From Theionarchaea archaeon (GTDB lineage: Archaea; Methanobacteriota_B; Thermococci; Methanofastidiosales; SZ-28-30), in assembly GCA_018992685.1 (NCBI GenBank), contig JACVGT010000019.1:1-64000 (forward strand): DNA of 64,000 nt. Direction: 5' to 3'. The translations under genes and the position numbers were made by a program. Below, one piece after another: positions 35,447 to 58,048 of this stretch (position 1 is its first letter; each line of letters starts with the position of its first letter). Under the pieces are notes generated by a model. The model was not told the DNA's origin and did not search any database. It saw only the letters and a list, made by a program, of their open reading frames with translations.

Positions 35447-35463
35447 TATTACTCCTTATAGCA
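35447..35463. promoter_or_regulatory. Degenerate BlaI-type box just downstream of the oppA TATA
   Basis: TATTAC-TCCTT-ATAGCA; TATA at about 35469-35477 on the minus strand. Confidence 0.45.
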
Positions 35464-35771
35464 ACCCACTTATAAAGTTTTCTGTCAAGGGTCAACAAGG
35501 TCTATACGGTAGCTAAGCGAACTTAAAGGATACTCTGTCCTTTTCTTGTCATGGGAAATCAGTATTCAACTGGAGCATTCTTTTCTGAGCGCAATTGTAC
35601 GTATATCTACATCTTCCAATGATACCTACAACCACGTAAGTCTCCGTCCATCATTCGTCGCAGAACGAGAAAAAGGGCTCGGGTATCCTACCTCTTTTTC
35701 TGCTGTGTCTACCTTCTCTTGAGGTTGCCTGTCCCCCTTCCATGGGGCTGCTCTGTGCAGCAGAAGAGGCT

Positions 35772-35921
35772 CTAAACCAGAAGCGAGAATATCACAGCCA
35801 ACACAAACAGAAAGACCAATACCAGAACGTACGGGAGAAAAATCTGCCAAAGAGCAATAGTAAAGGCCAGGACATCTTTCTTATCGGCCTTGAATTCCAG
35901 GTTGTTTTCCATGTCTTCCAT
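35772..35921 (-). CDS. 49-aa single-TM protein closing the second opp operon (below ORF-track cutoff)
   Basis: MEDMENNLEFKADKKDVLAFTIALWQIFLPYVLVLVFLFVLAVIFSLLV*; AGGTG SD overlapping the upstream stop. Confidence 0.7.
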   Translation of the reverse strand: MEDMENNLEFKADKKDVLAFTIALWQIFLPYVLVLVFLFVLAVIFSLLV

Positions 35922-35930
35922 TCCATACAC

Positions 35931-37391
35931 CTATTCTCCGTGTGAGTAAAGAGATAAAAAGGTTTCTTCTGCTGATTGTGAAAGGCGAGAAAAGTCTTTC
36001 GCAATTTCAGGAGATACCATACTACATAGCTTCAAGACCAGGACCAGCACAATGAATCCTCCAACATAGAAGAACACATCATGTGAGAAGACAGTGGGCA
36101 CATTTCCCCTGAGCAGAATGACCAATATAATCAGTCTCAATATGTTCCAGGCTGAGATCAATCCAAATCCCACGAAAGAGAGCAATACCTTCTTCTTAAG
36201 GGATATGGTGGTTGCAAAAACCACACCCAGAAAAACCGCTATGAAGAAGAGAGAAAGACAGGATTTCTCTATGGAACAGCCCTCCAGAAAGACGAAGTCA
36301 CTCCCTGCAACGTACGCGGTATAAAACCCAAACAGATCAAGAATCGCTTTTGTGACCAGAGCAACTGCCTTCCTGAACAGAAAATAGTCTGAAATATAGT
36401 AGATGATCACAGAGATAATGGTGGCTTTGACGAGAAATGCACTGAGCTCACTGGAGATGAAGAACGAATACAATTTCTCCAGCACGTTCTCCTTCCGGGG
36501 GTATTCCCGGGTCATCAGTTCGTCCAGGAATATGGGGAGCAGGAGGATGAGAACCATAATGATTGACCAGAAGGGGATGATCACGTTACTGGGTTCACGA
36601 ATATCACTGTACTGTGCCCTCTTGTCCAGGTTCACCTGAAATATCTCCCTCGTGGCCATACCAGTGATGAAGTAGGTGTTCTCTTCTCCAGCGGCAATCG
36701 CGCGGGGAAGACTGTCAGGAGCGTAGTACCATGAGGACGTCGTTTTACCCCTGGCATTAATGTGGAACACCTTCCTTGAGGTTACTCCAGTCACAATAAT
36801 TTCACCATTCTTGTATTCAATGTCTCCTGCAAAAGGAGCGGGTGACTCAAGAAAGTCCAGGATTTCTCCTGAATCGGGATTATACCGATAAATGATGGAA
36901 TTAGGGTATATGTTGGCAAAGAGATCCGGGTACTCTTCAAGCCCAAACACGTCCAGGATCCACAGGGCCTCTCCGTCCCAGGCCAGTCCGTATGGAGTGC
37001 TGTAAGGAGTCACATATGATCCTTTGACAGTTCCATCGATCGAAACCTTGTAGATGGTCCTTCTTGCATAATCAGCTACCCAGAAGTTCTCCCCATCAAA
37101 GGTGAGTCCAGCTGTCTCAAAACAGGGCACACTGATGGTCCGAATGACCTGGCTGGTTTTCAGATCAAACTCCAGGATTGCCTTGTCAAGACCAGACGAT
37201 ATCCAGAGGGAGCCATCCATGAAGTAAAGCCCATTGGTAGTGTAGGTGGGGCGCTGGTAGATTTCATCATTCTTGTATCTGTTGGGGATGTATTTTTCTC
37301 CTTTCCACTCCTGGTACTCACTATTGACGTAGAGAACAAATAAGAAAAAGAAGAAAACAACCGCAACCAATTTCTTGTTGTCGCTTTTCAT
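35931..37391 (-). CDS. Beta-propeller + archaeosortase/exosortase-family fusion protein
   Basis: GL.(W/F)DG..LW blades; C-terminal multi-TM domain with Cys (EKSCLS), Arg (WNILR) and His (SHDV) in exosortase order. Confidence 0.75.
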   Translation of the reverse strand: MKSDNKKLVAVVFFFFLFVLYVNSEYQEWKGEKYIPNRYKNDEIYQRPTYTTNGLYFMDGSLWISSGLDKAILEFDLKTSQVIRTISVPCFETAGLTFDGENFWVADYARRTIYKVSIDGTVKGSYVTPYSTPYGLAWDGEALWILDVFGLEEYPDLFANIYPNSIIYRYNPDSGEILDFLESPAPFAGDIEYKNGEIIVTGVTSRKVFHINARGKTTSSWYYAPDSLPRAIAAGEENTYFITGMATREIFQVNLDKRAQYSDIREPSNVIIPFWSIIMVLILLLPIFLDELMTREYPRKENVLEKLYSFFISSELSAFLVKATIISVIIYYISDYFLFRKAVALVTKAILDLFGFYTAYVAGSDFVFLEGCSIEKSCLSLFFIAVFLGVVFATTISLKKKVLLSFVGFGLISAWNILRLIILVILLRGNVPTVFSHDVFFYVGGFIVLVLVLKLCSMVSPEIAKDFSRLSQSAEETFLSLYSHGE

Positions 37392-37392
37392 T

Positions 37393-38361
37393 CTACATCA
37401 GAGGGTAGTGGCATGCCACGAAATGGCCATCTCCCATATCACGCAGCTGAGGGATTTCTGTGGCGCAGTTTTCTTTTGCATATCGACATCGGGGATGGAA
37501 CCGGCATCCCTGAGGAGGATTGGCTGGTGTCGGCACATCACCCGTGAGAATGATCCTCTTCCTCTTCTTTCGGGGATCGGCTATGGGTGCTGCCGAAAGG
37601 AGTGCCTCAGTATAGGGATGGTACATCTTCTCGAAGATCTGTTCTTCTGTACCCATCTCGACAATGACACCCACGTACATCACAGCCACTCTATCACTGA
37701 TGTGTCTGACGATGCTCAGATCGTGAGTAATGAACATCATAGTTAGCCCTTCCTCTTTCTGGATGTCAGACAGCAGATTCAAGATCTTTGACTGAACAGA
37801 CACATCCAGGGCAGATGTTGGTTCGTCTGCCACGATCAGCCTTGGCTTGAGCGCAATGGCTCGGGCTATGCCAATTCGCTGCCTCTGTCCTCCAGAAAAT
37901 TCATGAGGGTAACGGTATATGTGAAAGGGCGCCAACCCAACTTCATTCATGAGCCGCAGAACAACTTTCTTCTTCTCTCCTGATTTCAATTCCCCATGGA
38001 TTTCGAAGGGCTCTCCAATAATGTCATAGACAGTCATCCTGGGATCCAGTGATGAGTAGGGATCTTGGTATATCATCTGAGCTTCTTTCTTGAATTCCTT
38101 CAGTTCCCGGGATCCCAACTTACTAACATCTCTTCCTTCAAAGAGGATTTCTCCTGCTGTTGGTTCGATGAGCCTCAGGACAGTCTTTCCCAGCGTGGTC
38201 TTTCCACATCCAGACTCACCCACAATGCCCAGGATTTCCTTGGGGAAGACATCAAAACTCACATTATCCACTGCTCTGATATCTCCCACCTTTCGCCCAA
38301 AGAATCCCGCAGTTATGGGAAAGTACTTCTCCAGATTCCTAACCTGCATTAGCGGCTTCAT
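37393..38361 (-). CDS. oppF: Oligopeptide ABC ATPase
   Basis: [24 protein letters not shown]. Confidence 0.95.
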
Positions 38362-39338
38362 AACTTGGTCCCCTCCCTTTTGTGCCAGCACTCAACATAG
38401 TGATCGCCAATCCACTCTCCGTTTGGCTGTTCCTTTTCACAAACCTCTGTTGCAAAGTCACACCGAGGATGGAACCGGCATCCAGATGGAGGATAGATTA
38501 GATTGGGGACAACACCCTTGATAACACCCAATTTCTGTTTCTTCTCTGTCACCTTGGGTATCGCCTCATGAAGTGCGATAGTATAGGGGTGAAGTGGGGC
38601 ATGAAAGACAATGTCAACTTCTCCATACTCAACCAGCCGCCCAGCGTACATCACTCCCACATGATCAGACATCTCGGCAATGACACCAAGGTTATGCGTG
38701 ATGAGCAAGACTGTTGTGCCTAGCTCTCTCTTGAGGTTGTTTATCATGTCCAAAACCTGTGCCTGAACTGTCACGTCGAGATTTGTCGTGGGCTCGTCTG
38801 CTACCAGCATTTTGGGATTACATGAGAGAGCCATTGCAATCATGACCCGCTGCTTCATTCCTCCACTAAACTGATGTGGAAAGTCATCAACACGGGCATC
38901 AGGGTCGGGGATACCCACGAGATCTAACATTTCAATTGCTTTCTGTCTAGCTTCTTTTTTCCCAAGACCCTGGTGAAGTTCAATCACTTCTCTCAATTGA
39001 TTGTCCACCGTATATACGGGGTTAAGTGCACTCTGAGGATCCTGGAATATCATTGAAATGTCATTCCCTCTGATTTGCCTCATGTCGCTCTCAGAAAGAG
39101 CCAGGAGGTTCACACCTTCAAAGAGAATCTCTCCATCAATAATCTTCCCCGGAGGATCGGGAACAAGTCTGAGGACAGACAGGGCAGTGACAGTCTTTCC
39201 ACAACCAGATTCACCGACCAGCCCTAAGGTCTCTCCCTGCTCAATGTGAATATCGATTCCTTCCAACGCTCTTACGATGCCATCCTCTGTATAAAAGTAC
39301 GTTCTCAGTCCTTTAATTTCCAGTAGATTATCAGCCAA
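38358..39338 (-). CDS. oppD: Oligopeptide ABC ATPase
   Basis: [16 protein letters not shown]. Confidence 0.95.
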
Positions 39339-39342
39339 AATA

Positions 39343-40269
39343 TCACCTTTTCAGTCGAGGATCGAGTGAATCTCTGAGTCCATCACCCAGCAAATTGAAT
39401 CCCAAAACAGCAATGAAAATCATGATACCGGGCAGTACGGTAATCCACCAGGCTGACCTCATGACATCTCGTCCTTCAGCGCAAATTCGTCCCCATGAGG
39501 GAATCACAGGGTTCCCGAACCCCAGGAATGCAACACCTGCCTCTGTCAGAATTGCTGCAGCCATTCCAAACGTTGCTGCCACGATCACAGGTGCAATTGC
39601 ATTGGGGAGCATGTGCCTCCAGATGATACGAAAGTTGGATGCCCCGAGTCCCCGTGCTGCTTCTGTGAACTGCCTCTCCCTGAGAGACAAGATTTCGCTC
39701 CGGATTAATCGGGCATATCCTGTCCAGTTGATGAAAGCAATGGCCAACCCGATCATGATCAGACCGCCTTCAGGATACAAAGTCACGAGGATGACGACTA
39801 TTGGGATAAAGGGCAGTGCCAGGAAAACATCAACAATTCTCATCAGAAGAATGTCCAGTACTCCTCCATAGTACGCAGAGATGGCTCCATACAATGTACC
39901 GACTATTCCACCGATGCCAACAGCAACAATCCCCACCAGAAGGGATCTTTCTGCACCATACAGCAGGCGAGAGTACAGACACCTTCCAAGAGCGTCAGTG
40001 CCAAGTGGAAATTCAGGGTTTTCACCCGGTGCCAGGTAACTGTTCATCAGCGAAACAGTATTAGGGTCATTTGGTGCTATTTCTGGAGCAAAAATCGCCA
40101 TTAATACAACTACCAGGAATACGCCAAATCCTACAATACCAGCTTTGTTTCTGATGAAGCGCCGGAGGGTTGTCATGAGCATTCCTGCACTTCGTTCTGC
40201 CTCACGCAACTGCTGCTCCAGCTCCTTGTCCATTTCAGGTATCTCAGTCGTTTTCTTCTTTTCTGCCAT
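39343..40269 (-). CDS. oppC: Oligopeptide ABC permease
   Basis: LGTDALGR, EAARGLGA. Confidence 0.95.
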   Translation of the reverse strand: MAEKKKTTEIPEMDKELEQQLREAERSAGMLMTTLRRFIRNKAGIVGFGVFLVVVLMAIFAPEIAPNDPNTVSLMNSYLAPGENPEFPLGTDALGRCLYSRLLYGAERSLLVGIVAVGIGGIVGTLYGAISAYYGGVLDILLMRIVDVFLALPFIPIVVILVTLYPEGGLIMIGLAIAFINWTGYARLIRSEILSLRERQFTEAARGLGASNFRIIWRHMLPNAIAPVIVAATFGMAAAILTEAGVAFLGFGNPVIPSWGRICAEGRDVMRSAWWITVLPGIMIFIAVLGFNLLGDGLRDSLDPRLKR

Positions 40270-40284
40270 GAAATCACCTTTAGA

Positions 40285-41268
40285 CTAAAACTCCACTCTT
40301 GGATCAAGCCATTTGTAGGAAATGTCAATCAAGACATTAGCCACTAGAATAAGAGTTCCAAGTACCACGGTAATCCCTACAATGACGAAATAGTCCCTGT
40401 GCTGAATTGCATACACAAAGTACTTCCCCAGGCCGGGCCATGAAAACACTGTCTCAGTAATAGGTGCTCCTCCCAGGGTAAGTGCAATCTGCATCCCTGT
40501 CACAGTTATCACTGGAAGCATTGCGTTTCTCAGTGCATGCTTGTAAATCACTATTCGTTCCTTGAGCCCCTTGGCCCTTGCTGTCATGATATAGTCTTCC
40601 CGCAGGACATTGAGCATTGAGGATCGGACCAACCGCGCATTGTATGCAGTCGATGCCAGACCCAGAGTCAATGTGGGCAGAGCCAGATGTTTCAGGTAAT
40701 CAAAGTAGTACGAAAAGTCATGGGGAATATCTTTTCCCAGAAACACCGTAGAATGGGCACCCCCACTGGGAAGCCATCCCAGTATCAGGGCAAATATGAA
40801 AATGTTCATCAACCCCAGGAAGAATATGGGGAACGAAACGCCCAGTAACGCCGCTGTCATGACCAGATTATCCGTCTTTGAATATTGTCTGACTGCAGAT
40901 ACAATTCCTGCTGGGATAGCAACACCTATCGAAAAGACAACGGCAAGCAGCTGGTATGATAGGGTGTTTACCACTCTGGCCCCGATTTCTTCGGAGACAT
41001 CTCTTCCAGATAGAAATGAAGATCCAAGATTAAAGGTTGCAAACTGTTTGAGCCAGTAAAAGTACTGGATATACCAAGGTTTATCCAGGCCGTAAATCGA
41101 TTTTATGTGTGCCACGTATGCAGGATCAGTGTCGGGCTGTAGTGCCAACATGAGATCAACAGCATCCCCTGGCATCAAGTACATTAGCATGAACACTATG
41201 AAAGAGATTCCCATGAGCATGGGAATAATCAGGATCACTCTTTTCAGGATATATTCTCTCATTCCCAT
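40285..41268 (-). CDS. oppB: Oligopeptide ABC permease
   Basis: PGD, GLDKP, DYIMTARAKG. Confidence 0.95.
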   Translation of the reverse strand: MGMREYILKRVILIIPMLMGISFIVFMLMYLMPGDAVDLMLALQPDTDPAYVAHIKSIYGLDKPWYIQYFYWLKQFATFNLGSSFLSGRDVSEEIGARVVNTLSYQLLAVVFSIGVAIPAGIVSAVRQYSKTDNLVMTAALLGVSFPIFFLGLMNIFIFALILGWLPSGGAHSTVFLGKDIPHDFSYYFDYLKHLALPTLTLGLASTAYNARLVRSSMLNVLREDYIMTARAKGLKERIVIYKHALRNAMLPVITVTGMQIALTLGGAPITETVFSWPGLGKYFVYAIQHRDYFVIVGITVVLGTLILVANVLIDISYKWLDPRVEF

Positions 41269-41348
41269 ATCGCACATCCTCCTTTGTTTTGTTTAGAGCA
41301 AGTCTCCTCATGTCGGGGCTGTTCTTTCTTGTCCTCAGTCATTTCAAC

Positions 41349-41394: not shown

Positions 41395-43314
41395 CTAGTC
41401 TTTCTTCTTTACCATGTACCCAATGGCAAGTCCGACTATCAGGGCAACTATTCCAATTACAATCAGTGTCGTGGTGGACGTACCACCAGCTCCAGCTTCT
41501 CCGCCTTCTACCGTTACCTGTTTCTCAATGATGTAGTAGCGGTATCCTGCCGTGTCCATCAATTCTCGTGCCTTGGCCAGGTCATACGGGTCTGGTGCAA
41601 TGTTGGTGTTGAAGGCCCATGAGGGAACAGCAACAGGGTTCCGTCCGGGTACACCGTAGCCACCCAACAGGTTGTCCACAATTCCCTGTCTGTCAATACA
41701 GGAGGAAATGGCCTGTCTCACGTACTTGTTGGCCAGGTATGGGTTGCGGCAGTTGAAGTGCAGGTGCTGGTAGCCGAACTGCTCTGAAGTCCACAACTTG
41801 ATGCCGGGAGTAGCTTCGAGATCCTCACCAATGGCTGTCAAGTTGTAGTAGGTGTCCATCATGTCGATTTCGCCAGTTTCCAGGGCAACACGGGCTGCCT
41901 CTCTCTCGGGTATCAATTTCAGCACAAAGAAGTCGCATCCTGCTTCTGGGAGACCATACTTTGAACCCCAGTAGTTGGGATTCTTCTTCAACTTCCAGTA
42001 CTGGTCAGCTTCCCACGAGTCAAAGATGAAGGGTCCAGAACCAATGACGGTTTCTCCCCTGTTGACGTCAGACTCCATCCACTTGGTAGCAGCTTCTGCT
42101 CCTGTTATAGGAATATCACCATAGAGGTGCTTGGGCAGAATGTTGGTGTCACAGTATCTGAGCCAGGCAGCGTGGGGCATTCCGACATACACTCTCAGTG
42201 TGTACTTGTCAACGATTTCTGATCCACCATAGACATCTCTGAATGTTCCATATCCCTGGAAGGCAGTATCTGGGCTGACACAGGCATCAAAGGACCACTT
42301 GATATCTTCGCTTGTCATTTCCACACCATCGTGGAACATGATGCCTTCTCTGATCTTAATGTCGAAGTATTCTGGGAAGACTACAGGTTCAGCGAGCTTG
42401 GAACTGACATTACACTTGTTGACATCAGGGGCCATAGCCTCAATTGAAGCATCGTCCAGCATGCTGGGGGCAAACACAATAGTAGGTCCTTCTGTTGTAG
42501 AATCTGCCAGCAAGGGTGACATGTTCAGGTTATCGTCGTTCTGCCACAGTGTCTGGAAAATCTGCTGGTTGCAGTAGTATCCATACACTGAGTTCCATCT
42601 CCAGACCAGCATTCCCTCAACAGCTGCAGGTGTACCATAGACAATGGTGTCTTTTCCAGGAATTGACCAGGACGCAGCATCATAGTTCTGTGTCCACAGC
42701 AATCCACTGAATCCTTCAAAGGTGTCTATTGAGGCCCACATGTTGAGTGGGATGTACACCACACAGTACGGCTGTTCATCTGCAACAATCTCCTGGAATC
42801 TCCACAGGTATTCCTTTCTCTTTGCCTGATCAATTTCGACTCGTGCTTTAGCCAGCATCTCGTCAGCTTCCGGGCAGTACCAGAATGTCACGTTGTTACC
42901 TATGGGGGTCATTGCAGAAGAGTGGAATATGTCAAAGGGATCAGGGTCTACGCCCACTGACCAGCCGAACGAAGAAATGTCGAATCCATCTTCAGAATAG
43001 GATTTTCCGTAGTAGTTGTTGAACTCCCTGTTGATCAGGTCTCCGAACTCCAGCAACTTGAAGTCAGCCTGAATGCCGATCTTGGGCATCTCAAGGTTGA
43101 CAGCCTGGGTGTACTGCTCTCTGACCTTGTTCCCGATAGGAGCAATCTGCGTAATCGAAAAGAACGGTGGGTACTTGGAATAATCCTCAGTAAAGGGAAC
43201 CTTCGTGATCTCCTGTTCCTGAGCAATCGCAGTAGTTCCGAATAAAGAAAGTACCAAAGAAGTCAAGAGAACAATCGACAGCACCATTGAGACTTTTCTT
43301 GTTTTTACATTCAT
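41395..43314 (-). CDS. oppA: Family 5 SBP paralog 1 (circularly permuted), operon-linked
   Basis: Signal peptide; FHDGVEMTSED, GSGPF, VRQAIS..IDR; plain C-terminal TM + KKKD. Confidence 0.9.
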   Translation of the reverse strand: MNVKTRKVSMVLSIVLLTSLVLSLFGTTAIAQEQEITKVPFTEDYSKYPPFFSITQIAPIGNKVREQYTQAVNLEMPKIGIQADFKLLEFGDLINREFNNYYGKSYSEDGFDISSFGWSVGVDPDPFDIFHSSAMTPIGNNVTFWYCPEADEMLAKARVEIDQAKRKEYLWRFQEIVADEQPYCVVYIPLNMWASIDTFEGFSGLLWTQNYDAASWSIPGKDTIVYGTPAAVEGMLVWRWNSVYGYYCNQQIFQTLWQNDDNLNMSPLLADSTTEGPTIVFAPSMLDDASIEAMAPDVNKCNVSSKLAEPVVFPEYFDIKIREGIMFHDGVEMTSEDIKWSFDACVSPDTAFQGYGTFRDVYGGSEIVDKYTLRVYVGMPHAAWLRYCDTNILPKHLYGDIPITGAEAATKWMESDVNRGETVIGSGPFIFDSWEADQYWKLKKNPNYWGSKYGLPEAGCDFFVLKLIPEREAARVALETGEIDMMDTYYNLTAIGEDLEATPGIKLWTSEQFGYQHLHFNCRNPYLANKYVRQAISSCIDRQGIVDNLLGGYGVPGRNPVAVPSWAFNTNIAPDPYDLAKARELMDTAGYRYYIIEKQVTVEGGEAGAGGTSTTTLIVIGIVALIVGLAIGYMVKKKD

Positions 43315-43363
43315 ATCTTTTCTACCTCCTTTGATCGGTATTGTATCCACGTACAGGGAAAGG

Positions 43364-43379
43364 CTTATAAACCTTTCGG
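43364..43379 (-). promoter_or_regulatory. BRE-TATA of SBP paralog 1 / second opp operon
   Basis: CCGAAAGG-TTTATAAG on the minus strand. Confidence 0.75.
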
Positions 43380-43392
43380 TTTCAGTAGTATA

Positions 43393-43464
43393 TACTATCT
43401 TAAGTCGTAGCTAAAGCCAATAGTAGCATGCTACATTATATAATAGCTATTACCTTAAATAGTA
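43393..43464. promoter_or_regulatory. Two BlaI-type boxes upstream of the paralog 1 BRE
   Basis: TACTAT-CTTAA-GTCGTA (43393-43409) and TATTAC-CTTAA-ATAGTA (43448-43464). Confidence 0.65.
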
Positions 43465-43563
43465 AATTGAAGATTCTGGATTGGCTGCTTTTTACCTGGG
43501 CGGGCCGAACTCGGGCTTTTGCAGATAATCAAAAAAGAAACGCCGAAAAAATGAGAAACAAAG

Positions 43564-43752
43564 TCAGAATACGATGACAACTCCCATTTTCTCCAACAAG
43601 AAATATATACAGATCAGAAAGATAACAATCAGCCCCAAAATGAACAGCAGGGTGACTTTCTCTTTCGAATTCTTGTAATCTCTAGCGAAAATACCAATCA
43701 GTAGCACATCGCACACAATCGCTACCAGGAGTAGCAAAGCCTGTACATTCAT
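43564..43752 (-). CDS. Small 2-TM hypothetical protein
   Basis: AGGAGG SD; two hydrophobic helices. Confidence 0.6.
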   Translation of the reverse strand: MNVQALLLLVAIVCDVLLIGIFARDYKNSKEKVTLLFILGLIVIFLICIYFLLEKMGVVIVF

Positions 43753-43989
43753 CTAATTCCTCCTTTTCTAATCAGCATTTCGTAAGTTTTCAGATGTGGT
43801 GGTGTGTCCTCGTCACGTCGACATAAATACTTTTGGATAGGGTTCCTGTGTTACATAATCAAATCGTACTAATACATCATTTACAGCATAGTAGGAATTT
43901 TCTTACTATGCTGCAACTTCTATCTTGAAGAAATGATTATCATAAGAGGATTTCGTATGCTTTTCTTTCACTGCACTGCGTGTGCAATC

Positions 43990-44073: not shown

Positions 44074-44197
44074 TCTACAGTGACAATTCCTGGATGGACC
44101 ATCTCACAGAACAGGAAGAAGACTTTCCATTTGCGAGGAATTCAAGAAATTCTCTGGAAAAGCAAATCTTACTCTCCCTGTAGGACATCTCTCAGAG

Positions 44198-45133: not shown

Positions 45134-45134
45134 A

Positions 45135-46800: not shown

Positions 46801-46834
46801 ACAAACCTTTAAAAGCTTACGACAACAGGTAGTA
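46801..46834 (+). promoter_or_regulatory. blaI promoter with autoregulatory box
   Basis: CTTTAAAA TATA then TACGAC-AACAG-GTAGTA (46818-46834), ending 3 nt before the ATG. Confidence 0.75.
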
Positions 46835-46837: not shown

Positions 46838-47224
46838 ATGAATATCAAAAGACTTGGTCCTCTAGAACGAACAATAATGGAAGTCTTCTGGGAGAAGAAA
46901 AAAGCTGATGCACGGGAGGTCTATTCAGAACTCAACAGAGAAAAACAAATCGCCTACACCACCATCAATACTACTCTCACCCGTCTTCACAAGAAGAAAT
47001 TGCTCAACAGAAAGCTGGTGAAGGGAAGAGGAGGATACCGTTATGTGTACACCATTGCCAAGTCAAAACCAAAATACATTGATCAGGTCATACGCTCTAC
47101 CATAGATGATCTCCTGATGCGGTTCGGAAATCGAACCATAAGTTACTTCTCAGAAAGTCTCAACCTGAATGAAGAGGATGTGGAGAAGCTAAGAGTTCGT
47201 CTGAAGGAGTTGTCTCATGAATGA
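46838..47224 (+). CDS. BlaI/MecI/CopY-family repressor
   Basis: LGPLERTIMEVFW, AYTTINTTLTRL.KK.LL.R. Confidence 0.92.
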   Translation: MNIKRLGPLERTIMEVFWEKKKADAREVYSELNREKQIAYTTINTTLTRLHKKKLLNRKLVKGRGGYRYVYTIAKSKPKYIDQVIRSTIDDLLMRFGNRTISYFSESLNLNEEDVEKLRVRLKELSHE

Positions 47225-48554
47225 GTGGCAGAATTTTGCGCTTGCGATTGTATTGATTGTGGTGGTACAATTCACCAACGAGGGCATCATTGCGCTACTG
47301 AAAGTGAGGAATGCCACCACTCGATTCCGTATTAGGCTCATTTCTCTTGTCTCCTGTTTTTTCGTGTTTTTGATTGTTCCGTTCAAGATCGTGGAACTCA
47401 CCATCCTGTCGGGAGAGATTTTTGTCGGCAGCAGTGAATCTTCCCAGATTGATGGCTGGGTGGCCAGATCTGCCACAATGACGTCGACCTATTCTGGGTT
47501 TGCACGGGCCAGCGTTGTTCTCCTCTTGATAGCTGTGTGCTGCTTTGTTGTCATGGTTCTGTTCGGCAAGCACATAACTGGTAGAGTATTTGGATGTGAG
47601 CCAGCAACAGATTCGAGGCTTCTGACCATTGTGAATCAAGTCTCCTCTGAACTGGGACTGTCCATCAAGCAGGTGATGGTGTGCAGAAAGAAATGTGACG
47701 CCTTTGTATATGGATACCCTCCTTTCCTAGCAGTGGGAAGAGACCTCCTCACTATGCTGGATGACAGTGAGCTCCGGATAGTCATCAGGCATGAATTGTA
47801 CCATGTCAAAGGTAAGGACACACTCCTGAAGCCATTTCTTGCCGCTCTGTGCATTGTCTTCTTATACAACCCCATGAGCTGGTTCCTGTATAGAAAAGTG
47901 TTTAATGACAGGGAGTGCTGCGCTGATCAGGCTTCTATCACCTGTTCTCAGGACACCAGGACATTTCTTTCCCTGCTGCTGAAATTCCACAGCCTTGCAA
48001 GTGGCATGCCGCACACGTTTGCTGTTCACTGGACGGGAGCCACTAACAGAATTGACTCACTCCTCTTTGCAGAAAAGACCCGGAAGATCCCTGTCTTCTT
48101 GTGTTTGTTCTTTACGGTCTCATCGCTTTTTGTGGGAGGTACTCAGCTCTTTGAGAACCAATTTGTGGAAATCAACAGCTCTATTCCGTTTGATTCAGAA
48201 ACATATGGTCCGGAAGCTGATTTCTCAGACTATTTCTATGATATTCCTGTAGCAGAATGGTACAACAGAAAACGATCGGAAAATGAAGTGAGTATCCCAC
48301 TACAGGAAAGAGACCTCAGAAAACTCCTGTCTGCAGACGAACTTGCCAAGGGAGAAATCACCATAAGAATGGCCACGCTTCCCTTGGGAAGGAGACCTCA
48401 GTTGTTTGGCAGAAACGATATTGTGGATGGCAACTGTAACCTCATCATTGAAATAGAAGAGGGCAAACTATTCGTTTCCATAAGACAGAACAATGGACCT
48501 GGAACGTCCCAGAAGGAAGCCGTTCTCAGTGGAGGACCTGCCACAGCAATGTAG
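47217..48554 (+). CDS. M56-family (BlaR1-like) membrane zinc metalloprotease
   Basis: TM helices, HELYH..GKD, YNP..W, RECCAD; no recognisable penicillin-binding sensor domain. Confidence 0.88.
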   Translation: MNEWQNFALAIVLIVVVQFTNEGIIALLKVRNATTRFRIRLISLVSCFFVFLIVPFKIVELTILSGEIFVGSSESSQIDGWVARSATMTSTYSGFARASVVLLLIAVCCFVVMVLFGKHITGRVFGCEPATDSRLLTIVNQVSSELGLSIKQVMVCRKKCDAFVYGYPPFLAVGRDLLTMLDDSELRIVIRHELYHVKGKDTLLKPFLAALCIVFLYNPMSWFLYRKVFNDRECCADQASITCSQDTRTFLSLLLKFHSLASGMPHTFAVHWTGATNRIDSLLFAEKTRKIPVFLCLFFTVSSLFVGGTQLFENQFVEINSSIPFDSETYGPEADFSDYFYDIPVAEWYNRKRSENEVSIPLQERDLRKLLSADELAKGEITIRMATLPLGRRPQLFGRNDIVDGNCNLIIEIEEGKLFVSIRQNNGPGTSQKEAVLSGGPATAM

Positions 48555-51253: not shown

Positions 51254-52059
51254 TGGCTGTCGGAACCGTATTGATGTCGGCTGCACTGGAAAACCCGGTG
51301 GAGGGGTGGGCTGTCCTCATGGAAACCAATGATTTCCCTGGAGGGTACACTGATCTCCCTCTGGGCTTCGTGGATGTTGAACGAATGGAGACCCTGCTCC
51401 AGTACCACGGGTGGCAGAAATCACACATGCTACTAAGAAGAGATACTATTACGACGCAAGCAGTGAAGGAGGGTATTGCATACCTGCAGAAAGCAGATCA
51501 GAATGACATTGCTTTGTTCTACATTTGCTCTCACGGAGGATATCTGAGGCATGATCTCCAATGGAACAGTCTCATGCCTCCGCTCTGGGAGCGTGTTACC
51601 AGTGAAAAGAGAGTATTGATTATAGATTCCTGCTATGCAGGTTCCTTTCTGCCGGAAAGCGAGAGACCATACATCGGGATTGGCTCAGTTTCGGCTGACG
51701 AGCTTGGGTGGGCAGGCCTGCCAGAAGAGAACCTGCCTATTACCGGGTTCGTGTTCACCTACTACTTCTGCCAGTCCACCCTGGGAGTATCAGTTGAAGA
51801 GGGATTTGGAAGGGCCAGTCCCCAGGTACAGCAGTACATGCAGGATGTGGTCTATCCGGCTTTCAAGGAAGTCTATCCTCCCGAGCACTACAATGTCTAT
51901 GATCCTCATCCTGTGTTGAAGGATTCGTATCCAGGTGAGCTCTCCCTGTGGGTTGATGAGGGTGGAGTTTCTCTCTCTCAGGTTCTGGCTGTCCTGATGC
52001 TTCTCCTCCTGGGAATCATCCTTGCCCTGGATAGAAAAGGAATCTGTTCATGTGACTAG
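51250..52059 (+). CDS. Caspase/metacaspase-like (clan CD) peptidase with C-terminal TM
   Basis: FYICSHG and IIDSCYAG His-Cys dyad; start position uncertain. Confidence 0.8.
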   Translation: MMAVGTVLMSAALENPVEGWAVLMETNDFPGGYTDLPLGFVDVERMETLLQYHGWQKSHMLLRRDTITTQAVKEGIAYLQKADQNDIALFYICSHGGYLRHDLQWNSLMPPLWERVTSEKRVLIIDSCYAGSFLPESERPYIGIGSVSADELGWAGLPEENLPITGFVFTYYFCQSTLGVSVEEGFGRASPQVQQYMQDVVYPAFKEVYPPEHYNVYDPHPVLKDSYPGELSLWVDEGGVSLSQVLAVLMLLLLGIILALDRKGICSCD

Positions 52060-52166
52060 GAAATGTGTAATGAAAGGGACGCTATACGGGGAAGTGAAGG
52101 TTTTCATCCTTTGTTCCTCTGCGTGCCGGCCAAAAGCTTTATATTTCAACAGAAGCAATCTCTCCT

Positions 52167-53210
52167 GTGGAATCGACAACTGATATTCTGGAGAAACTCA
52201 TAGAAGAAGAACAGAGAATAAGGCAGAAAGCAGAAGAACTGGGACTCCATGTCGGAAAAGAGTCACTAGAAGAGGCTAAGAAGCCCTTCAGGGCCAAAGA
52301 AGGAATTCCCAGGACAGAACTCACTGAACGAGAGATGTCTCGGCTGCTGGCCGAAACGAGGGATATTCTTGACATCTACAGCTTGGATTATGTTTCTGAG
52401 CATTTTGATGAGGCTAAGAATCTGTATTACGCGCTGAAGGACAAACCCTTCTCGCCTGATTCTCTCATTGGATCACGAATCGTGCAGAATATCCAGGAGT
52501 TGAAGGAACGAATCGATGCAGTGGAAGAACAGGAATCTCCAACAAAACCACTGGAAGAACTGCTTTCTGATTCGAAGAGGCTTCTTGATTCTCTGGATTC
52601 ACTTGACGCAGTTCAGGCGAAACGGCGCTATGCTGATCTGCTGAAGAGACAGCAGGATGCGCCCAAGAATGTGGATCAGCCACTTGAAGTAGAAATCGAC
52701 GAGTACCTGCTGGAAATTGGGAAACGAATTCAGCGAACAGAAAAAAAGACATCTGAAGAAATTGGAGAAGAGCTTCTGGAAGAAATCAGCACGTTGATTG
52801 GATCCAAGAGTTTTGATCCTGAAGGATACAACAGGATTGCCAGAAAATTCCAGGAAATAGCAGATGATCTTCCTGAAGATCTCAAAGTGAAAATAAGAGA
52901 CCGCATACGCGAGTCCTTTGCCAAGATGAAGGATCTCGAACAAAAGGAACACGTTGAAGAACGAATACGGGAAGAACGTGCCAAGAAGTTCTACTGGGAT
53001 TCATTCGCTCAGGAGGTGGAACAACTGAAGGCCGATCTGGAGCGAGCAACACCTGGAGAGTTTTTCAGGCTCTACGATATCTACAATCAATTGCTGGACT
53101 CACTGGAACACGCAGATCTATCAGATGTTCATGCTGCCCAGATTGAGCGGGTAAAATCAATGATAGATCAGTGTTACTACATGCTGGAAGAACTCAGATC
53201 ACGAGCATGA
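52167..53210 (+). CDS. Hypothetical acidic all-helical protein
   Basis: Long E/K/L-rich ORF; TATA about 25 nt upstream. Confidence 0.7.
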   Translation: MESTTDILEKLIEEEQRIRQKAEELGLHVGKESLEEAKKPFRAKEGIPRTELTEREMSRLLAETRDILDIYSLDYVSEHFDEAKNLYYALKDKPFSPDSLIGSRIVQNIQELKERIDAVEEQESPTKPLEELLSDSKRLLDSLDSLDAVQAKRRYADLLKRQQDAPKNVDQPLEVEIDEYLLEIGKRIQRTEKKTSEEIGEELLEEISTLIGSKSFDPEGYNRIARKFQEIADDLPEDLKVKIRDRIRESFAKMKDLEQKEHVEERIREERAKKFYWDSFAQEVEQLKADLERATPGEFFRLYDIYNQLLDSLEHADLSDVHAAQIERVKSMIDQCYYMLEELRSRA

Positions 53211-53214
53211 TACC

Positions 53215-53997
53215 CTATTTGGGGAGTCGTCCCAGTTCCACCACTCCTTTGGAAACAATGCGCTGTACCGTTGTTCTGGATCCGATCTTCAGGCTGCCAT
53301 CACACATGACTTTCTGAAGAACGCTGTCAGATCCCACGTAGATATCTCCTTTACAGTATACATCTTCTTTTACTTCACAGAAATTCCCTATTTCCAGCTG
53401 GACTTCTATGTTCACCGGCGAATTCATAATATTTCTGTCTCCAAGAGATGCATCCTTACCTTTTATAGAACCCTTGAACTCACACTCGGCTTTGCTCTTC
53501 ACCGTTGAAGCCACCACATCCCCATACACCATATTTTTGCTACCAAGGTGGACTTCTTCTCCTGCTTCAATATTCCCTTTTATAATGACTCCATCTCCGA
53601 GGTGGATGCTGCGGCTGGTTTTCAGCCCTCCTGTAAGAACCAGATCATCAGAGAGGCTAATGTCTGAGTCTCTGGCCACAATGGCAAAGGTTTTCAGGGA
53701 AATCTCATCCTTTTTCTGCTGTATTACCTGTTGAAGTTCGGATATTTCAAGATTCTTTTCTTCAATAATCTGTTTCAGCTGGCGTTCAGTTTCTGCAAAA
53801 TTTTCCACCTTGTCCAGGAGAGCCTGGTTATCCTCAGTCAGCCTTTCGGCTACCTCTCGTAACTTGGACACTCCGCCGTATTCCTTCCTGTAGGTTTCCA
53901 ACTCCCTGGTGATACGGGAGTTTTCGTCCCGCAATTCGGTGGCCATCCGTCTTAGAGATTCTATAACCTCATCTTTTCCTTTGTCAAAGAGCCCCAT
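53215..53997 (-). CDS. Coiled-coil + bactofilin-like beta-helix protein
   Basis: N-terminal heptads; repeated IKGNIEAGEEVHLG / VYGDVVA strands. Confidence 0.7.
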   Translation of the reverse strand: MGLFDKGKDEVIESLRRMATELRDENSRITRELETYRKEYGGVSKLREVAERLTEDNQALLDKVENFAETERQLKQIIEEKNLEISELQQVIQQKKDEISLKTFAIVARDSDISLSDDLVLTGGLKTSRSIHLGDGVIIKGNIEAGEEVHLGSKNMVYGDVVASTVKSKAECEFKGSIKGKDASLGDRNIMNSPVNIEVQLEIGNFCEVKEDVYCKGDIYVGSDSVLQKVMCDGSLKIGSRTTVQRIVSKGVVELGRLPK

Positions 53998-54157
53998 GCT
54001 GTTCAACCTCCATTCTTTTTTTCTACAGCATATATATAGCTTTTTCCATTGCCATTGCCGGACTGGTGAAGACCACATCCATTGTCAAGTCAGGCTCTGT
54101 TCTTCATACGTGGCTGAGCAGAAAAGTCGTTTTCTTTCGCCAATGCGAAAATAAAGT

Positions 54158-54619
54158 TCACATTGAGGATTTTCTCTCAGTCAGCTCGAACAAGCAGTAG
54201 CTATCTCCGGCAGCCTGACAGGAGGTCTCCCTGTACATGATGTCTTCTTTACTGTAATATCTGGAAACCAGCCCCTCGAAAAACCCAGCCAGAAAATGAC
54301 ACACGGGGTCATTACTTTCCGCATAGCCAGAAGCAATCGGAGAATCAGTAACCTGGAACTGAAATTCTTCAGGATGAAAGGTAGCCCTCACAAAGCCAGT
54401 GGCTTCCAGCTCGGCCAAAAGATCCTGGATGGTGGCGCCTTCATCTTCTGATTGCATGATTTCCATGTACTTGTCGCCAAATTCCTTTCCTGCAGAGTAG
54501 AGAACTTTGGCCGCAGAGGGCCCAATGGAATCCTCCAGCGTTTTCTGGATTTTCATGAAAATGCTGTTAAGCACCACTAGCTTCCTCTTTTTTTCCACCG
54601 GCAGCAATTCTTTCATCAT
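54158..54619 (-). CDS. V4R-domain protein
   Basis: LY.AGKEFG, PVCHFLAGFFEG, ETSC.AAGD.YC.F. Confidence 0.9.
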   Translation of the reverse strand: MMKELLPVEKKRKLVVLNSIFMKIQKTLEDSIGPSAAKVLYSAGKEFGDKYMEIMQSEDEGATIQDLLAELEATGFVRATFHPEEFQFQVTDSPIASGYAESNDPVCHFLAGFFEGLVSRYYSKEDIMYRETSCQAAGDSYCLFELTERKSSM

Positions 54620-54742
54620 ATATCCTTTCAATCAGGACTTTATAAAGGTATAGGAGGCGAGCAAAGAGGTAGTAGACCTGCCTTCTTGCTGACATTTCAA
54701 GATCTGCTGCTCCGGTGTCTGCCATCACGCTGAGGAGCCACA

Positions 54743-55537
54743 CTACGAGCCAAACCAGGCATCTAGCCTCCTCTGCCCAGGCTGGGCCTTCCTGTACGGG
54801 ATGTTCAGAAGGTCCTTCAACATTCGTGCGTTGCTGATTGCCTGCCCTCGGGGGTGATTATTGAACTGGAGATACAAAGTCTCGGTTGAGAGACGTATTT
54901 CTTGCACTTTGGGTACCCACTCCTTCAATTCTTCTTCTGAGTATTGATAGTCATACCAATGCGATGGGTTCCTTCCATGCCATCTAACATATCCAAGATC
55001 TGATGTGATTCGTACGAGAGGTTCCATTTTCACAGAATCTGTCACAACAAAGGCGGCGTGGTCATCTCTGAGAAAGGAAACGTCAATTCTCGAGTCCCAG
55101 GAGGTGTGGCGGAACTCTACCGCAAACCGCACATTGTCAGGTAGAAAGTCCAAGAACTCCTTCAGGTTATCTTCATACTCTGTAGAGAACTTTGGAGGCA
55201 ATTGAATGAGGAAACAGCCCAGCTTTCCTGAATCTATGAGAGGAAACATCAAAGAATAGAATTCCTTGAACACCGGTTCTGAATTCTTGAGAAATCTCTT
55301 GTGAGTAATCTCTTTGGGGATCTTTGCGGTGAAGACAAAATCATCAGGTACCTTCTTGTTCCAGGAAATGACCGCGTACTTATTGGGTAGGGCATAGAAA
55401 GTGGAGTTAATCTCTACCAGATTGAATTCCCTTGCATAAAACTCTAACATCTTTCCCTTCTCAATGCCTTCAGGGTAAAACGGGCCAATCCAATCATCAT
55501 AGCTCCAGCCACTCGTTCCTATGTATAAGGTTCCCAT
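54743..55537 (-). CDS. DUF72 (YecE-like) protein
   Basis: IGTSGWSY, VEINSTFY, QLPP, EFRH, R.HG. Confidence 0.93.
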   Translation of the reverse strand: MGTLYIGTSGWSYDDWIGPFYPEGIEKGKMLEFYAREFNLVEINSTFYALPNKYAVISWNKKVPDDFVFTAKIPKEITHKRFLKNSEPVFKEFYSLMFPLIDSGKLGCFLIQLPPKFSTEYEDNLKEFLDFLPDNVRFAVEFRHTSWDSRIDVSFLRDDHAAFVVTDSVKMEPLVRITSDLGYVRWHGRNPSHWYDYQYSEEELKEWVPKVQEIRLSTETLYLQFNNHPRGQAISNARMLKDLLNIPYRKAQPGQRRLDAWFGS

Positions 55538-55720
55538 AGTAGGAGTTCTTCTGATACCAAAAAAATGTTACGGTTCCTGTGCTGTAATGAGCCCCTGTGA
55601 TACTTCTGCTCCTGTTCTGCTGAGCCCCCATATCGATGCAAGGCCTCACATCACACATCTTTTGTTCCCACATCGAAGGGACGTACTTCCAGCATCCGAG
55701 CTCAATCATCCACGTGTCAA

Positions 55721-55779
55721 CCGAAAGTCTTATAAGTAGTAGTTATTATAATAACAAGTAGCTACTACTAAAAGTAGTA
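55721..55779 (+). promoter_or_regulatory. BRE-TATA and perfect BlaI-type box of SBP paralog 2
   Basis: CCGAAAGT-CTTATAAG; TACTAC-TAAAA-GTAGTA at 55763-55779. Confidence 0.75.
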
Positions 55780-55799
55780 TCTACTACGGAAAATCGGAA

Positions 55800-55903
55800 C
55801 TCCAATACCGTCTGCTGGTTGAAGATGTCGGCCTCCTTGGATCGGTATTGCAGACACTGAACCCGATCAACATCACCTCCAGCAGATGGTATACAGAATG
55901 GAG
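55800..55903 (+). ncRNA. Structured 5' leader (long hairpin exposing CCUCCUU)
   Basis: 55805-55818 pairs with 55879-55892 (14 bp, 1 GU); inner GATGT/ACATC and GATCGG/CCGATC. Confidence 0.65.
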
Positions 55904-55921
55904 ACCAAAGGAGGAAGAAAA

Positions 55922-57811
55922 ATGAACACAAGAAAGATCTCAGTCGTATTGTCTGCCGTGTTACTTGCTTCTTTAACTCTATCCCTATTCGGAACCAGTA
56001 CTGTTGCACAAGAACAGCAGTGGAAAAAAGTGCCAACTACTGAAGACTATTCCAATTACCCCGCATTCTTTTCGATCACGCAGATTGCCCCCATTGGGAA
56101 CAAGGTTAGGGAACAGTATACACAGGCAGCCAACCTCGAAATGAGAAAAATCGGCATAGGGGCTGACTTCAGAATGCTGGAGTTCGGAGACCTGATCAAC
56201 AGGGAATTCAACAACTACTATGGCAGCACATTTGCTGAAGATGGATTCGACATTTCTTCATTCGGCTGGTCAGTGGGAGTAGACCCCGATCCCTTTGACA
56301 GTTTCCACTCTTCTGCAATGACCCCCATAGGTAACAACATTACATTCTGGTACTGCCCGGAAGCTGATGAGATGCTCTCTCTCGCACGAGTTGAACTTGA
56401 CCAGCAAGCCAGAAAGGAATACCTGTGGAGATTCCAGGAGATTGTTGCGGATGAAAAGCCCTACTGTGTGGTGTATGTGCCACTGCTCATCTGGGCCTCC
56501 ACAGATCAACTGGAAGGCTTTAATTCACTGATGTGGCAGCAGAACTTTGATGCTGTAACCTGGTCAATTCCAGGAAAAGACACCGTTGTCTATGGTACAC
56601 CCGCAGCTGTCGAGGGTATGCTGCCCTGGAGATGGAACTCAGTGTATGGACACTATCTTCACAACCAGATATTTGAGACATTGTGGACCGTTGCTCCAGA
56701 CCTCACCATTGAATCAAGAATTGCTGACTCTGCAACAGAAGGACCTTCAATCGTATTTGCCCCTAGCACTCTTGATGATGCTTCAATTGAGGCTCTCGGA
56801 CCTGATGTCAAGAAGTGTGTGGTGAACACCAAACTCGCAGGTCCTGTTGTGTTCCCCGAATACTACGACATCAAAATCAAAGAAGGCATCATGTTCCACG
56901 ATGGCGTGGAGATGACCAGTGAAGATGTCAAGTGGTCAATGGATGCCTGTGTCAGCGCAGACACCGCCTTCCAGGGATGGGGTACCTTCAGAGATGTATA
57001 TTCCAGCTCAGAAATCCTTGACAAGTACACACTGAGAGTGTATGTCGGGATGCCCCACGCAGCATGGGTACAGTATTGTAATCCATATGTATTGCCCAAG
57101 CATATCTATGGTGGCATTCCTATAACAGGAGCAGAAGCTGCCACCAGCTGGATGGAATCTGACATCAACAGAGGAGACACTGTCATTGGTTCAGGACCCT
57201 TCATGTTTGATTCCTGGGAAGCTGACCAGTTCTGGAAGATGAAGAAGACACCTGACTACTGGGGTTCTGCATATGGATATCTTGAAGCAGGATGCGACTT
57301 CCTGATACTGAAATTGATACCCGAGAGAGAGGCAGCCCGTGTTGCCCTGGAAACTGGAGAAATTGACATCATGTGCTGCTACTACCAGCTCGGAGCAATT
57401 GCTCAGGACCTGGAAGCTACCCCCGGCCTAGTGTTGTGGACCACAGAAGACTTCGGCTACCAGCACCTGCACTTCAACTGCCGCAACCCGTACCTTGCCA
57501 ACAAGTACGTGAGACAGGCCATTTCCTCCTGTATTGACAGACAGGGAATTGTGGACAAGTTGCTGGGTGGTTATGGTGTGCCTGGTGCCAACCCTGTTGC
57601 CGTTCCCTCGTGGGCCTTCAACACCAACATTGCACCAGACCCATACGATCTGGACAAGGCACGAGAGTTGATGGACACGGCAGGATATCGCTACTACGTC
57701 CTAGAAAAGACGGTGAGCACAGGCGGAGAAGAGGAAGCTGGAGGCGGATTCTGTCTGGGAACCCTGTTTATAGCCCTTATGAAGACTAATCATCTATTCA
57801 GGAGAGAGTGA
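55922..57811 (+). CDS. oppA: Family 5 SBP paralog 2 (circularly permuted, orphan, degenerate anchor)
   Basis: Close paralog of 41395-43314; ends CLGTLFIALMKTNHLFRRE. Confidence 0.9.
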   Translation: MNTRKISVVLSAVLLASLTLSLFGTSTVAQEQQWKKVPTTEDYSNYPAFFSITQIAPIGNKVREQYTQAANLEMRKIGIGADFRMLEFGDLINREFNNYYGSTFAEDGFDISSFGWSVGVDPDPFDSFHSSAMTPIGNNITFWYCPEADEMLSLARVELDQQARKEYLWRFQEIVADEKPYCVVYVPLLIWASTDQLEGFNSLMWQQNFDAVTWSIPGKDTVVYGTPAAVEGMLPWRWNSVYGHYLHNQIFETLWTVAPDLTIESRIADSATEGPSIVFAPSTLDDASIEALGPDVKKCVVNTKLAGPVVFPEYYDIKIKEGIMFHDGVEMTSEDVKWSMDACVSADTAFQGWGTFRDVYSSSEILDKYTLRVYVGMPHAAWVQYCNPYVLPKHIYGGIPITGAEAATSWMESDINRGDTVIGSGPFMFDSWEADQFWKMKKTPDYWGSAYGYLEAGCDFLILKLIPEREAARVALETGEIDIMCCYYQLGAIAQDLEATPGLVLWTTEDFGYQHLHFNCRNPYLANKYVRQAISSCIDRQGIVDKLLGGYGVPGANPVAVPSWAFNTNIAPDPYDLDKARELMDTAGYRYYVLEKTVSTGGEEEAGGGFCLGTLFIALMKTNHLFRRE

Positions 57812-57988
57812 CACTATTTGAAATCTCCTGATTGAGCCAAAAATCCCATAAAGATTTTATCCTTCAACCTAAGAACTCAACCTGTCAACATTTCTTATCC
57901 AGTATTACCAATAGTGTCATGACATATGCACCTTTCATCCCACTACCATAGCAGCAAGTAGCTCCGGGAGAAAGAACATTAATTCCAA

Positions 57989-58048
57989 GCGAAAGTTTTA
58001 TAAAGCACAGTAACTACTAAATTCAAGTAGTTACTATTTTAAATAGTA
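57989..58048 (+). promoter_or_regulatory. BRE-TATA and BlaI-type box of SBP paralog 3
   Basis: GCGAAAGT-TTTATAAA; TACTAT-TTTAA-ATAGTA at 58032-58048. Confidence 0.75.

Follow-up and report, generated by a model that had tools for sequence, protein, structure and literature searches.

The window analyzed here, i.e. the whole stretch of 64,000 nucleotides taken from contig JACVGT010000019.1 (C15 in our numbering) of a Theionarchaea archaeon whose genome (G000) comprises 3.03 Mb in 45 contigs, was found to harbor a gene for a BlaI-family repressor, blaI, directly followed by a gene for an M56 membrane protease, together with four genes for Opp-type substrate-binding proteins, named A, B, C and D. 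A palindromic box of 17 bases, of the form TACTAY-N5-RTAGTA, is found at the promoters of blaI and of all four binding-protein genes, weakly so at gene A. As judged from its distribution, this cis-element very probably defines a coherent group of genes for peptide uptake and for peptidases, and it is more likely than not the operator of the BlaI repressor.

The blaI-M56 locus and its surroundings

A first-pass annotation, made from the sequence alone, had named the BlaI-family gene, the M56 gene and four peptide-binding proteins in an archaeal host, and had pointed out six palindromes at their promoters. These gene identities were upheld by Pfam, all four binding proteins belonging to SBP_bac_5, and the six palindromes were recovered exactly where they had been reported. 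The promoters are of the archaeal type, with a transcription factor B recognition element (BRE) and a TATA box, the combined form of which is clear at promoters in G000 as read from the sequence (CCGAAA-N2-3-TTTATAA). The features are given below with their positions in the window; no strand is assigned to the boxes.

33564..35408, minus strand: gene A, Opp-type substrate-binding protein (SBP_bac_5; Pfam)
35447..35463: weak box TATTAC-N5-ATAGCA (TATTACTCCTTATAGCA) at gene A (rank 43 of 2593 promoters)
35469-35482: TATA of gene A
37393..41277, minus strand: homologs of the two permeases OppB and OppC and the two ATPases OppD and OppF, following gene B (Pfam)
41395..43314, minus strand: gene B, Opp-type substrate-binding protein (SBP_bac_5; Pfam), heading the Opp operon
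43364..43379, minus strand: BRE/TATA CCGAAAGGTTTATAAG of gene B and the Opp operon (read from sequence)
43393..43409: box TACTAT-N5-GTCGTA (TACTATCTTAAGTCGTA), 13 nt upstream of the gene B BRE/TATA (pattern scan; kept in the relative G001)
43448..43464: second gene B box TATTAC-N5-ATAGTA (TATTACCTTAAATAGTA), farther upstream (pattern scan; three boxes in the G001 region)
46806..46815, plus strand: TATA box CCTTTAAAAG of the blaI-M56 operon (read from sequence; TTTAAAA invariant in 8/8 aligned orthologous promoters)
46818..46834: operator-like box TACGAC-N5-GTAGTA (TACGACAACAGGTAGTA) between the blaI TATA and ATG (pattern scan and ortholog alignment)
46838..47224, plus strand: blaI (paralog 1), BlaI/MecI/CopY-family winged-helix repressor, 128 aa (Pfam PF03965, phmmer)
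47217..48554, plus strand: M56/M48 membrane metalloprotease, 445 aa, 8-nt overlap with blaI (Pfam PF05569)
55721..55736, plus strand: BRE/TATA CCGAAAGTCTTATAAG of gene C (read from sequence)
55763..55779: box TACTAC-N5-GTAGTA (TACTACTAAAAGTAGTA) over the expected transcription start of gene C (pattern scan; top-ranking promoter site of the genome scan)
55780..55921, plus strand: hairpin-forming 5' leader of gene C, its loop being an anti-Shine-Dalgarno sequence (folding, compensatory changes)
55922..57811, plus strand: gene C, Opp-type substrate-binding protein (SBP_bac_5; Pfam)
57990..58005, plus strand: BRE/TATA CGAAAGTTTTATAAAG of gene D (read from sequence)
58032..58048: box TACTAT-N5-ATAGTA (TACTATTTTAAATAGTA) at gene D (pattern scan; the G001 ortholog keeps TACTATTTTGAATAGTA)
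58179..60080, plus strand: gene D, Opp-type substrate-binding protein (SBP_bac_5; Pfam)

The blaI product scored 80.4 bits against Penicillinase_R (PF03965, cut-off 22.6) over residues 6-123. By phmmer it was matched over its full length by the Staphylococcus aureus repressors BlaI (1sd4, E 1.6e-08, residues 9-126) and MecI (1okr, E 5.1e-08, residues 8-122), and in its N-terminal part alone by the mycobacterial 2g9w. Upstream of the gene, 20 nt are inserted after position 46481 in a contig from DNA run X1, an intergenic strain variant.

The neighboring product matches Peptidase_M56 (PF05569) with 61 bits against a cut-off of 31. Both parts of the zinc-site motif, taken as HExxH plus ExxxD (bioRxiv 10.64898/2026.08.03.742534), are present, namely HELYH at residues 192-196 and ExxxD at 233-237, and residues H192, E193, H196, E233 and D237 do not vary among 24 homologs. 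An AlphaFold2 model has helices at residues 3-27, 33-53, 94-115 and 291-313 (mean predicted local distance difference test score, pLDDT, 56), and the best Foldseek matches of this weak model were S. aureus BlaR1 structures, 8exs and 8exp (E 4e-05 to 1e-04, TM-scores 0.3-0.4). A penicillin-binding (transpeptidase-like) sensor domain was found neither by Pfam nor in the model or the Atlas. The C-terminal domain of about 130 residues (approximately 314-445) yielded no Pfam family (residues 300-445), no Atlas look-alike and no confident model, its pLDDT being below 50 across 304-445 except at residue 410. Among source-named homologs, a minority of the matches, this domain was found only in Theionarchaea or Methanofastidiosia and in one contig binned as Thorarchaeota; it is lineage-specific and probably extracellular.

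Frequency of the box and the genes it marks

Within the window, the pattern TAYKAYN5RTMRTA has five matches, whereas 100 dinucleotide shuffles averaged 0.09 and none of them reached five, i.e. the motif is commoner than chance. As this pattern was composed after the sites were known, a genome scan with a weight matrix was run as a fairer test. A symmetric matrix trained on the five strong window sites gave 12 sites of at least 14 bits in 674 kb of intergenic-like sequence, the five training sites included, versus 1.15 expected under an order-2 Markov model of that sequence (20 replicates, maximum 3). Two untrained sites reached at least 20 bits, which no null replicate did: C4:4145, preceding a 944-aa fused Opp-type permease, and C34:10544, preceding a DUF885 gene. 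In a separate ranking of 2593 promoters by half-sites alone, the next untrained ranks were held by two more DUF885 genes (C17:27788 and C1:35868) and a Peptidase_MA_2-like gene (C3:151181), with lower-ranked sites before BlaI paralog 2 (C15:135496) and an S-layer-like gene (C31:20727). Yet another site, C1:342221, falls where a Peptidase_S49 gene codes for its signal peptide. All three boxed DUF885 genes start with signal sequences ending in lipobox-like [LA][ST]GC, and the remaining three, shorter DUF885 genes of G000 had no box in the promoter ranking.

SBP_bac_5 genes number six in G000. The four in the window occupy ranks 2, 9, 11 and 43 of the 2593 promoters, and the two outside it, at ranks 661 and 886, have no box. 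The proposal that all four peptide-binding proteins of the window belong to one regulon thus agrees with the boxes, but these four genes do not delimit it: the regulon appears wider, since boxes also mark a second Opp permease, the three DUF885 lipoproteins and others, and at the same time it leaves out the other two SBP_bac_5 genes.

The second boxed Opp system opens with the 944-aa frame (C4:1298-4132), which is made up of a cytoplasmic N-terminal part, a beta-propeller-like middle with weak SGL/Vgb_lyase matches only, and an OppB-type permease. Weak beta-propeller matches (SGL/Vgb_lyase-like) were also obtained for a 486-aa protein (35931-37391) encoded between the Opp operon and gene A.

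Position of the box in the promoters

At blaI, 2 nt separate the TATA from the beginning of the box and 3 nt separate its end from the ATG, which makes a leaderless transcript probable. At genes C and D the box starts 26 nt past the BRE/TATA and approximately 140 nt ahead of the ATG. The distance from BRE/TATA to box is 22-25 nt at the C4, C34 and C17 sites, and the same arrangement, with 22-27 nt, recurs in the relatives G002, G004, G010/G013 and G016. A third variant, with the box 5-6 nt behind the TATA, is found at gene A (5 nt) and at the DUF885 gene on C1. Judged by sequence, the box would overlap the TATA-proximal or expected start region at blaI, A, C, D, C4, C34, C17 and C1. The first-pass annotation had assumed the same geometry at every promoter, which is borne out for blaI, A, C and D, where the box follows the TATA, but not for gene B, where it lies upstream of the BRE/TATA. 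A distal regulated TATA of gene B was considered as well, with ATTATATAAT (43430-43440) as the candidate, and was rejected because the G001 ortholog has a box there and no TATA. The half-site centres are 11 bp apart, i.e. one helical turn, a spacing that fits dimer binding.

Conservation among relatives

Relatives were labeled G001 and onwards; the order-level set consists of 34 genomes, with families f1, f2 (the sister family) and f3. As had been asked of the motif, TACTAY-N5-RTAGTA is kept at ortholog promoters, in the two Theionarchaea families f1 and f2. Genes of the C type are confined to these families within the set, and nine out of nine have the box. Among 15 strict sites examined in f1/f2 relatives, eight precede SBP_bac_5, SBP_bac_1, DUF885 or Peptidase_M1 genes, and the sites examined mostly lie 20-27 nt after a BRE/TATA. 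The weak box of gene A has counterparts at the equivalent position in G001, G002 and two of three metagenome contigs examined (divergent A-type genes); in G002 two A-type genes are boxed, one of them with a perfect box.

The strict pattern outnumbers its backwards control in G000 (7 vs 2), G001 (8 vs 1) and G004 (5 vs 1). Two of the strict matches in G004, L084 (C3:1507) and L085 (C3:61715), have common flanks (..GATCTACAGGA..AAA.GGCT..) that are inverted relative to each other. They thus look more like copies of a repeated element than like promoters; one of the two adjoins an MmeI-like gene. No enrichment was found in 27 Thermococcales genomes, with 5 strict matches versus 39 for the control pattern. 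Family f3 has 29 strict matches versus 8 for the control, in genomes without a BlaI match to the query used; the 13 of these 29 that were inspected all fall inside conserved open frames of at least 170 aa, and most are repeated 17-mers.

At blaI itself, eight orthologous promoters could be aligned, five of them from a metagenome scan (genus level, 84-100% protein identity). TTTAAAA, TAC.A, TAGTA and the ATG are invariant in all eight, and the five spacer columns of the box are unconserved. Invariant half-sites around a varying spacer amount to a clean footprint. In the flanks of the box, a TAG at positions -3 to -1 is conserved as well.

These data also bear on whether the box binds a protein at all. 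Genes B, C and D are paralogs with 78-81% identity, so the box could be a relic of promoter duplication among binding-protein genes, or else a small hairpin in the 5' RNA, given that it would fall at the transcript start at C, D and some other targets. However, boxes stand before unrelated genes (DUF885, the fused Opp permease, Peptidase_M1, SBP_bac_1 and blaI), they lie upstream of the expected start at blaI, gene B and paralog 2, and their half-sites are kept where the surrounding promoter has diverged and the spacer varies. A box without a protein-binding role is thereby very improbable.

The candidate binder

BlaI was singled out as the candidate binder of the box on account of the divergent synteny with binding-protein genes and of the layout of the box, 6-N5-6, which resembles that of a characterized BlaI operator. 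As for synteny, the M56 gene directly follows blaI in 10 out of 10 loci of this paralog (paralog 1), compared to none of 20 loci of the type termed paralog 4 below. Furthermore, an Opp-type binding-protein gene is the divergent neighbor of blaI-M56 in G002 and G003 and in L106, L107 and L115, metagenome contigs bearing blaI-M56 loci, with a BlaI identity across these five loci of 54-88%. As for layout, the BlaI_0696 protein of Clostridium thermocellum was found by DNA affinity purification sequencing and electrophoretic mobility shift assays to bind inverted GTCTAT repeats 5 nt apart and to be autoregulated, with sites for four protomers (PMC8457756). The two operators have inverted 6-mers, the N5 spacing and a CTAT/ATAG core in common, and differ in that BlaI_0696 is described with the half-site GTCTAT and a tiny regulon of three upstream sites (PMC8457756), and the box studied here has TACTAY and about a dozen promoters.

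In some of the divergent intergenic regions a second palindrome, GTTACACGTGTAAC, was noticed between the binding-protein gene and blaI, namely in G002 (L101, C138, about 5140-5160) and twice in L115 (about 2435-2455 and 2580-2600). It does not occur in G000, where TTACACGTGTAA gave 0 matches.

Four BlaI-family genes are present in G000, three of them paired with an M56/M48 protease (445, 429 and 311 aa). Besides blaI itself, i.e. paralog 1, they are:

C15:135096-135455: BlaI paralog 2 with its own M56 partner; promoter box TATTAT-N5-ATAGTA
C16:59820-60131: BlaI paralog 3, paired with an M56/M48 gene; 6-N4-6 variant box directly after the TATA
C8:57483-57800: BlaI paralog 4, solo; a type found, with no M56 neighbor, in all 27 Thermococcales genomes searched

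Paralogs 1-3 have a near-identical recognition helix, AYTT[IV][NS]T..L.RL, and the helix of paralog 4 differs. The binding-protein and peptidase genes could therefore be regulated by paralog 2 or 3, or be shared between one of these and paralog 1, the more so as each of the two is paired with an M56/M48 protease and has a related box in its own promoter, and as A-type promoters retain a deviant box, TGCTAT-N5-GTAATA, across species. The relatives speak for paralog 1. With the query used, each f2 genome gave paralog 1 plus one weaker match, which proved to be of the paralog-4 type where checked (G004); in G007 and G010 there was one more match, weak or partial. The same query detected no ortholog of paralogs 2 and 3 in f2, and yet f2 has the boxes, which favors paralog 1 as the binder. 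Moreover, synteny with binding-protein genes is restricted to paralog 1, and G002 has the paralog 2 box in a degenerate form. The Thermococcales have only the paralog-4 type of BlaI. Control by another paralog, alone or together with paralog 1, is distinctly unlikely on these grounds.

The box could also be a genuine operator for peptide acquisition whose binder comes from another regulator family, with blaI-M56 merely as one more target. Palindromes of the 6-N5-6 type are in fact used by other archaeal winged-helix regulators. One such case is TrmBL1/Tgr with the Thermococcales glycolytic motif, an archaeal 6-N5-6 palindrome that mediates repression when downstream of the BRE/TATA and activation when upstream; TrmBL1/Tgr is of the TrmB family and responds to a sugar effector, and its sequence and regulon are unlike those of the boxes described here. 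Another family would also accommodate blaI promoters without a canonical box, even though binding-protein promoters in the same genomes have one. Such promoters are found in f2, with ATACTATGAGTATG-type repeats instead, and in G003 and L107, where the intergenic region that blaI shares with the binding-protein gene has its canonical box on the side of the latter alone. No suitable regulator of another family came to light, however. Among the top promoter matches in G000 no other regulator gene has a box in its promoter, and none was found beside the binding-protein gene of G004. A box-like site at the called start of an AsnC-type regulator gene (C5:22107-22751) was rejected as pointing to a rival, since the site is inside the coding end of an upstream tandem paralog. 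With the conserved divergent arrangement and the BlaI_0696-like operator layout both pointing to BlaI, we regard a regulator of another family as unlikely.

BlaI as the binder, with M56-mediated release, is nevertheless weighed down by several observations, among them the f2, G003 and L107 promoters just mentioned, according to which autoregulation is not universal. The assignment to paralog 1 is not exclusive, given the near-identical helices of paralogs 1-3 and the related box in the promoter of each. The boxes upstream of the BRE/TATA at gene B (both boxes), C31 and C3 are not in the position of a simple repressor. At the protein level, the region aligned to the staphylococcal cleavage site reads TISYFSESLNL, with Y103, F104, S105 and L108-N109-L110 invariant in eight orthologs, and has Tyr-Phe at the cleavage position in place of the staphylococcal Asn-Phe. 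The box does not conform to the TACA/TGTA operator type either, being TACTAY-N5-RTAGTA with the outer TAC/GTA alone in common. Finally, the joint distribution of box, BlaI and binding proteins over f1 and f2 would fit any lineage-specific factor. The original claim that BlaI/M56 controls the peptide genes consequently stands in part: a shared conserved box, an intact gene pair and its linkage to Opp-type binding-protein genes in several lineages argue for it, and the overlap between paralogs, the unboxed blaI promoters of f2 and the box position at gene B count against it.

A proposed model of the switch

Taking both sides together, we estimate a probability of roughly 0.55 for the whole chain, i.e. 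that TACTAY-N5-RTAGTA is the operator of the BlaI repressor encoded at 46838-47224 and that the M56 protein acts as its releaser. DNA binding by BlaI, repression and cleavage by M56 are here predicted from sequence. According to this model, a BlaI dimer would sit on the two half-sites, one helical turn apart. At its own leaderless promoter the repressor would occupy the space between TATA and start, and at the targets it would be placed either just behind the TATA or about 26 nt beyond it, over the transcription start, in both cases blocking RNA polymerase recruitment. The regulon would comprise the four Opp-type binding proteins with the Opp operon, the second Opp-type permease, the three DUF885 lipoprotein-type genes and a few others. 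By analogy with BlaR1, a cue from outside would be received by the C-terminal domain of M56 and lead to cleavage of the repressor, whereby peptide uptake and surface peptidases would be derepressed. A position rule like that of TrmBL1 would account for the boxes ahead of the gene B promoter; these may serve activation, or alternatively cooperative occlusion.

A more far-reaching version would make the BlaI/M56 switch the master regulator of peptide scavenging in Theionarchaea, with the novel extracellular domain of M56 sensing peptides or protein, the same repressor acting negatively on most targets from sites at or past the TATA but activating the Opp operon from the upstream sites, and a structured leader coupling the paralogs as a second layer. 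We consider this version tentative and somewhat unlikely.

Relation to known systems

The BlaI/BlaR1 pair is the textbook switch of antibiotic resistance. Like BlaI-BlaR1 of S. aureus and Bacillus licheniformis and like MecI-MecR1, the archaeal system has a winged-helix repressor with a C-terminal dimerisation part, an adjacent M56 zinc protease and a palindrome in the repressor's own promoter. It differs from these by its archaeal host with BRE/TATA promoters, by having no penicillin-binding sensor, and by its inferred targets, which are peptide uptake and peptidases and not a beta-lactamase or PBP2a. With CopY/CopR it shares the Pfam family and a palindromic operator; in CopY, on the other hand, a C-terminal CxC motif mediates the release by copper, there is no protease partner, and the half-sites are 2 nt apart. 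The classical staphylococcal and CopY operators are given as of the TACA-NN-TGTA type, and the cop box as extended to 16 bases, RNYKACANNTGTMRNY (PMC7253601).

Further parallels are CenIR of Clostridioides difficile, BlaIR of mycobacteria and PvmSR of Pseudomonas aeruginosa, which are described with an M56 protein without a transpeptidase-type sensor (PMC13492132; bioRxiv 10.64898/2026.08.03.742534). As presented in these sources, their C-terminal part is likewise undefined and their regulons are not related to beta-lactams. They are bacterial and control envelope hydrolases, energy metabolism or virulence, whereas here an archaeal acquisition of peptides is proposed. Only about 6% of some 15,000 M56 proteins are reported to carry a penicillin-binding domain (PMC13492132). 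Judged by titles, the literature searched contained no study of an archaeal BlaI/BlaR1 system.

It has recently been argued that most members of the BlaI/BlaR1 family respond to other signals, and very few regulons are known. The present case adds a testable archaeal regulon, with an operator sequence, about a dozen promoters and a peptide theme. As the Theionarchaea are uncultured sediment archaea, a regulator of peptide uptake would bear on how they feed. It would also provide a naturally occurring example of a proteolytic repressor of bacterial type at work on an archaeal promoter that depends on TATA-binding protein and transcription factor B.

Leaders and transcripts of the binding-protein genes

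The leaders of approximately 140 nt of genes C (55780-55921) and D (58049-58178) are each predicted to fold into one long hairpin, with z-scores of -2.7 and -4.3, respectively. Such leaders were also noted at L032:1355-1512 and L038:3355-3510 (minus strand). In a comparison of four sequences in all, compensatory changes were found in 9 out of 23 pairs, i.e. the stems differ between paralogs while the pairing is kept. A conserved loop, ACCUCCUUUGAUCGGUA, is an anti-Shine-Dalgarno sequence, with complementarity of 8-9 nt to the ribosome-binding site of the same gene and of 17-20 nt to the corresponding region of gene B (about 43318-43345, minus strand). The hairpin may thus exert translational control or mediate cross-talk between the paralogs. 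Rfam returned no family in 43200-58300 at E-values up to 1.

Metatranscriptome contigs from sediment and soil (three libraries from two studies) were also mapped; such contigs cannot show starts or expression levels, and carry-over of DNA is possible. No RNA-library contig covers 43669-47670, which includes blaI, or 49005-53006, although contigs cannot show absence, and 47671-49004 has no more than trace depth, in X11. Genes B, C and D are partly covered in X10 and X11, and gene D alone in X15. One of the contigs, 55833-56204, begins 89 nt before the ATG of gene C, which fits a long leader of this gene.

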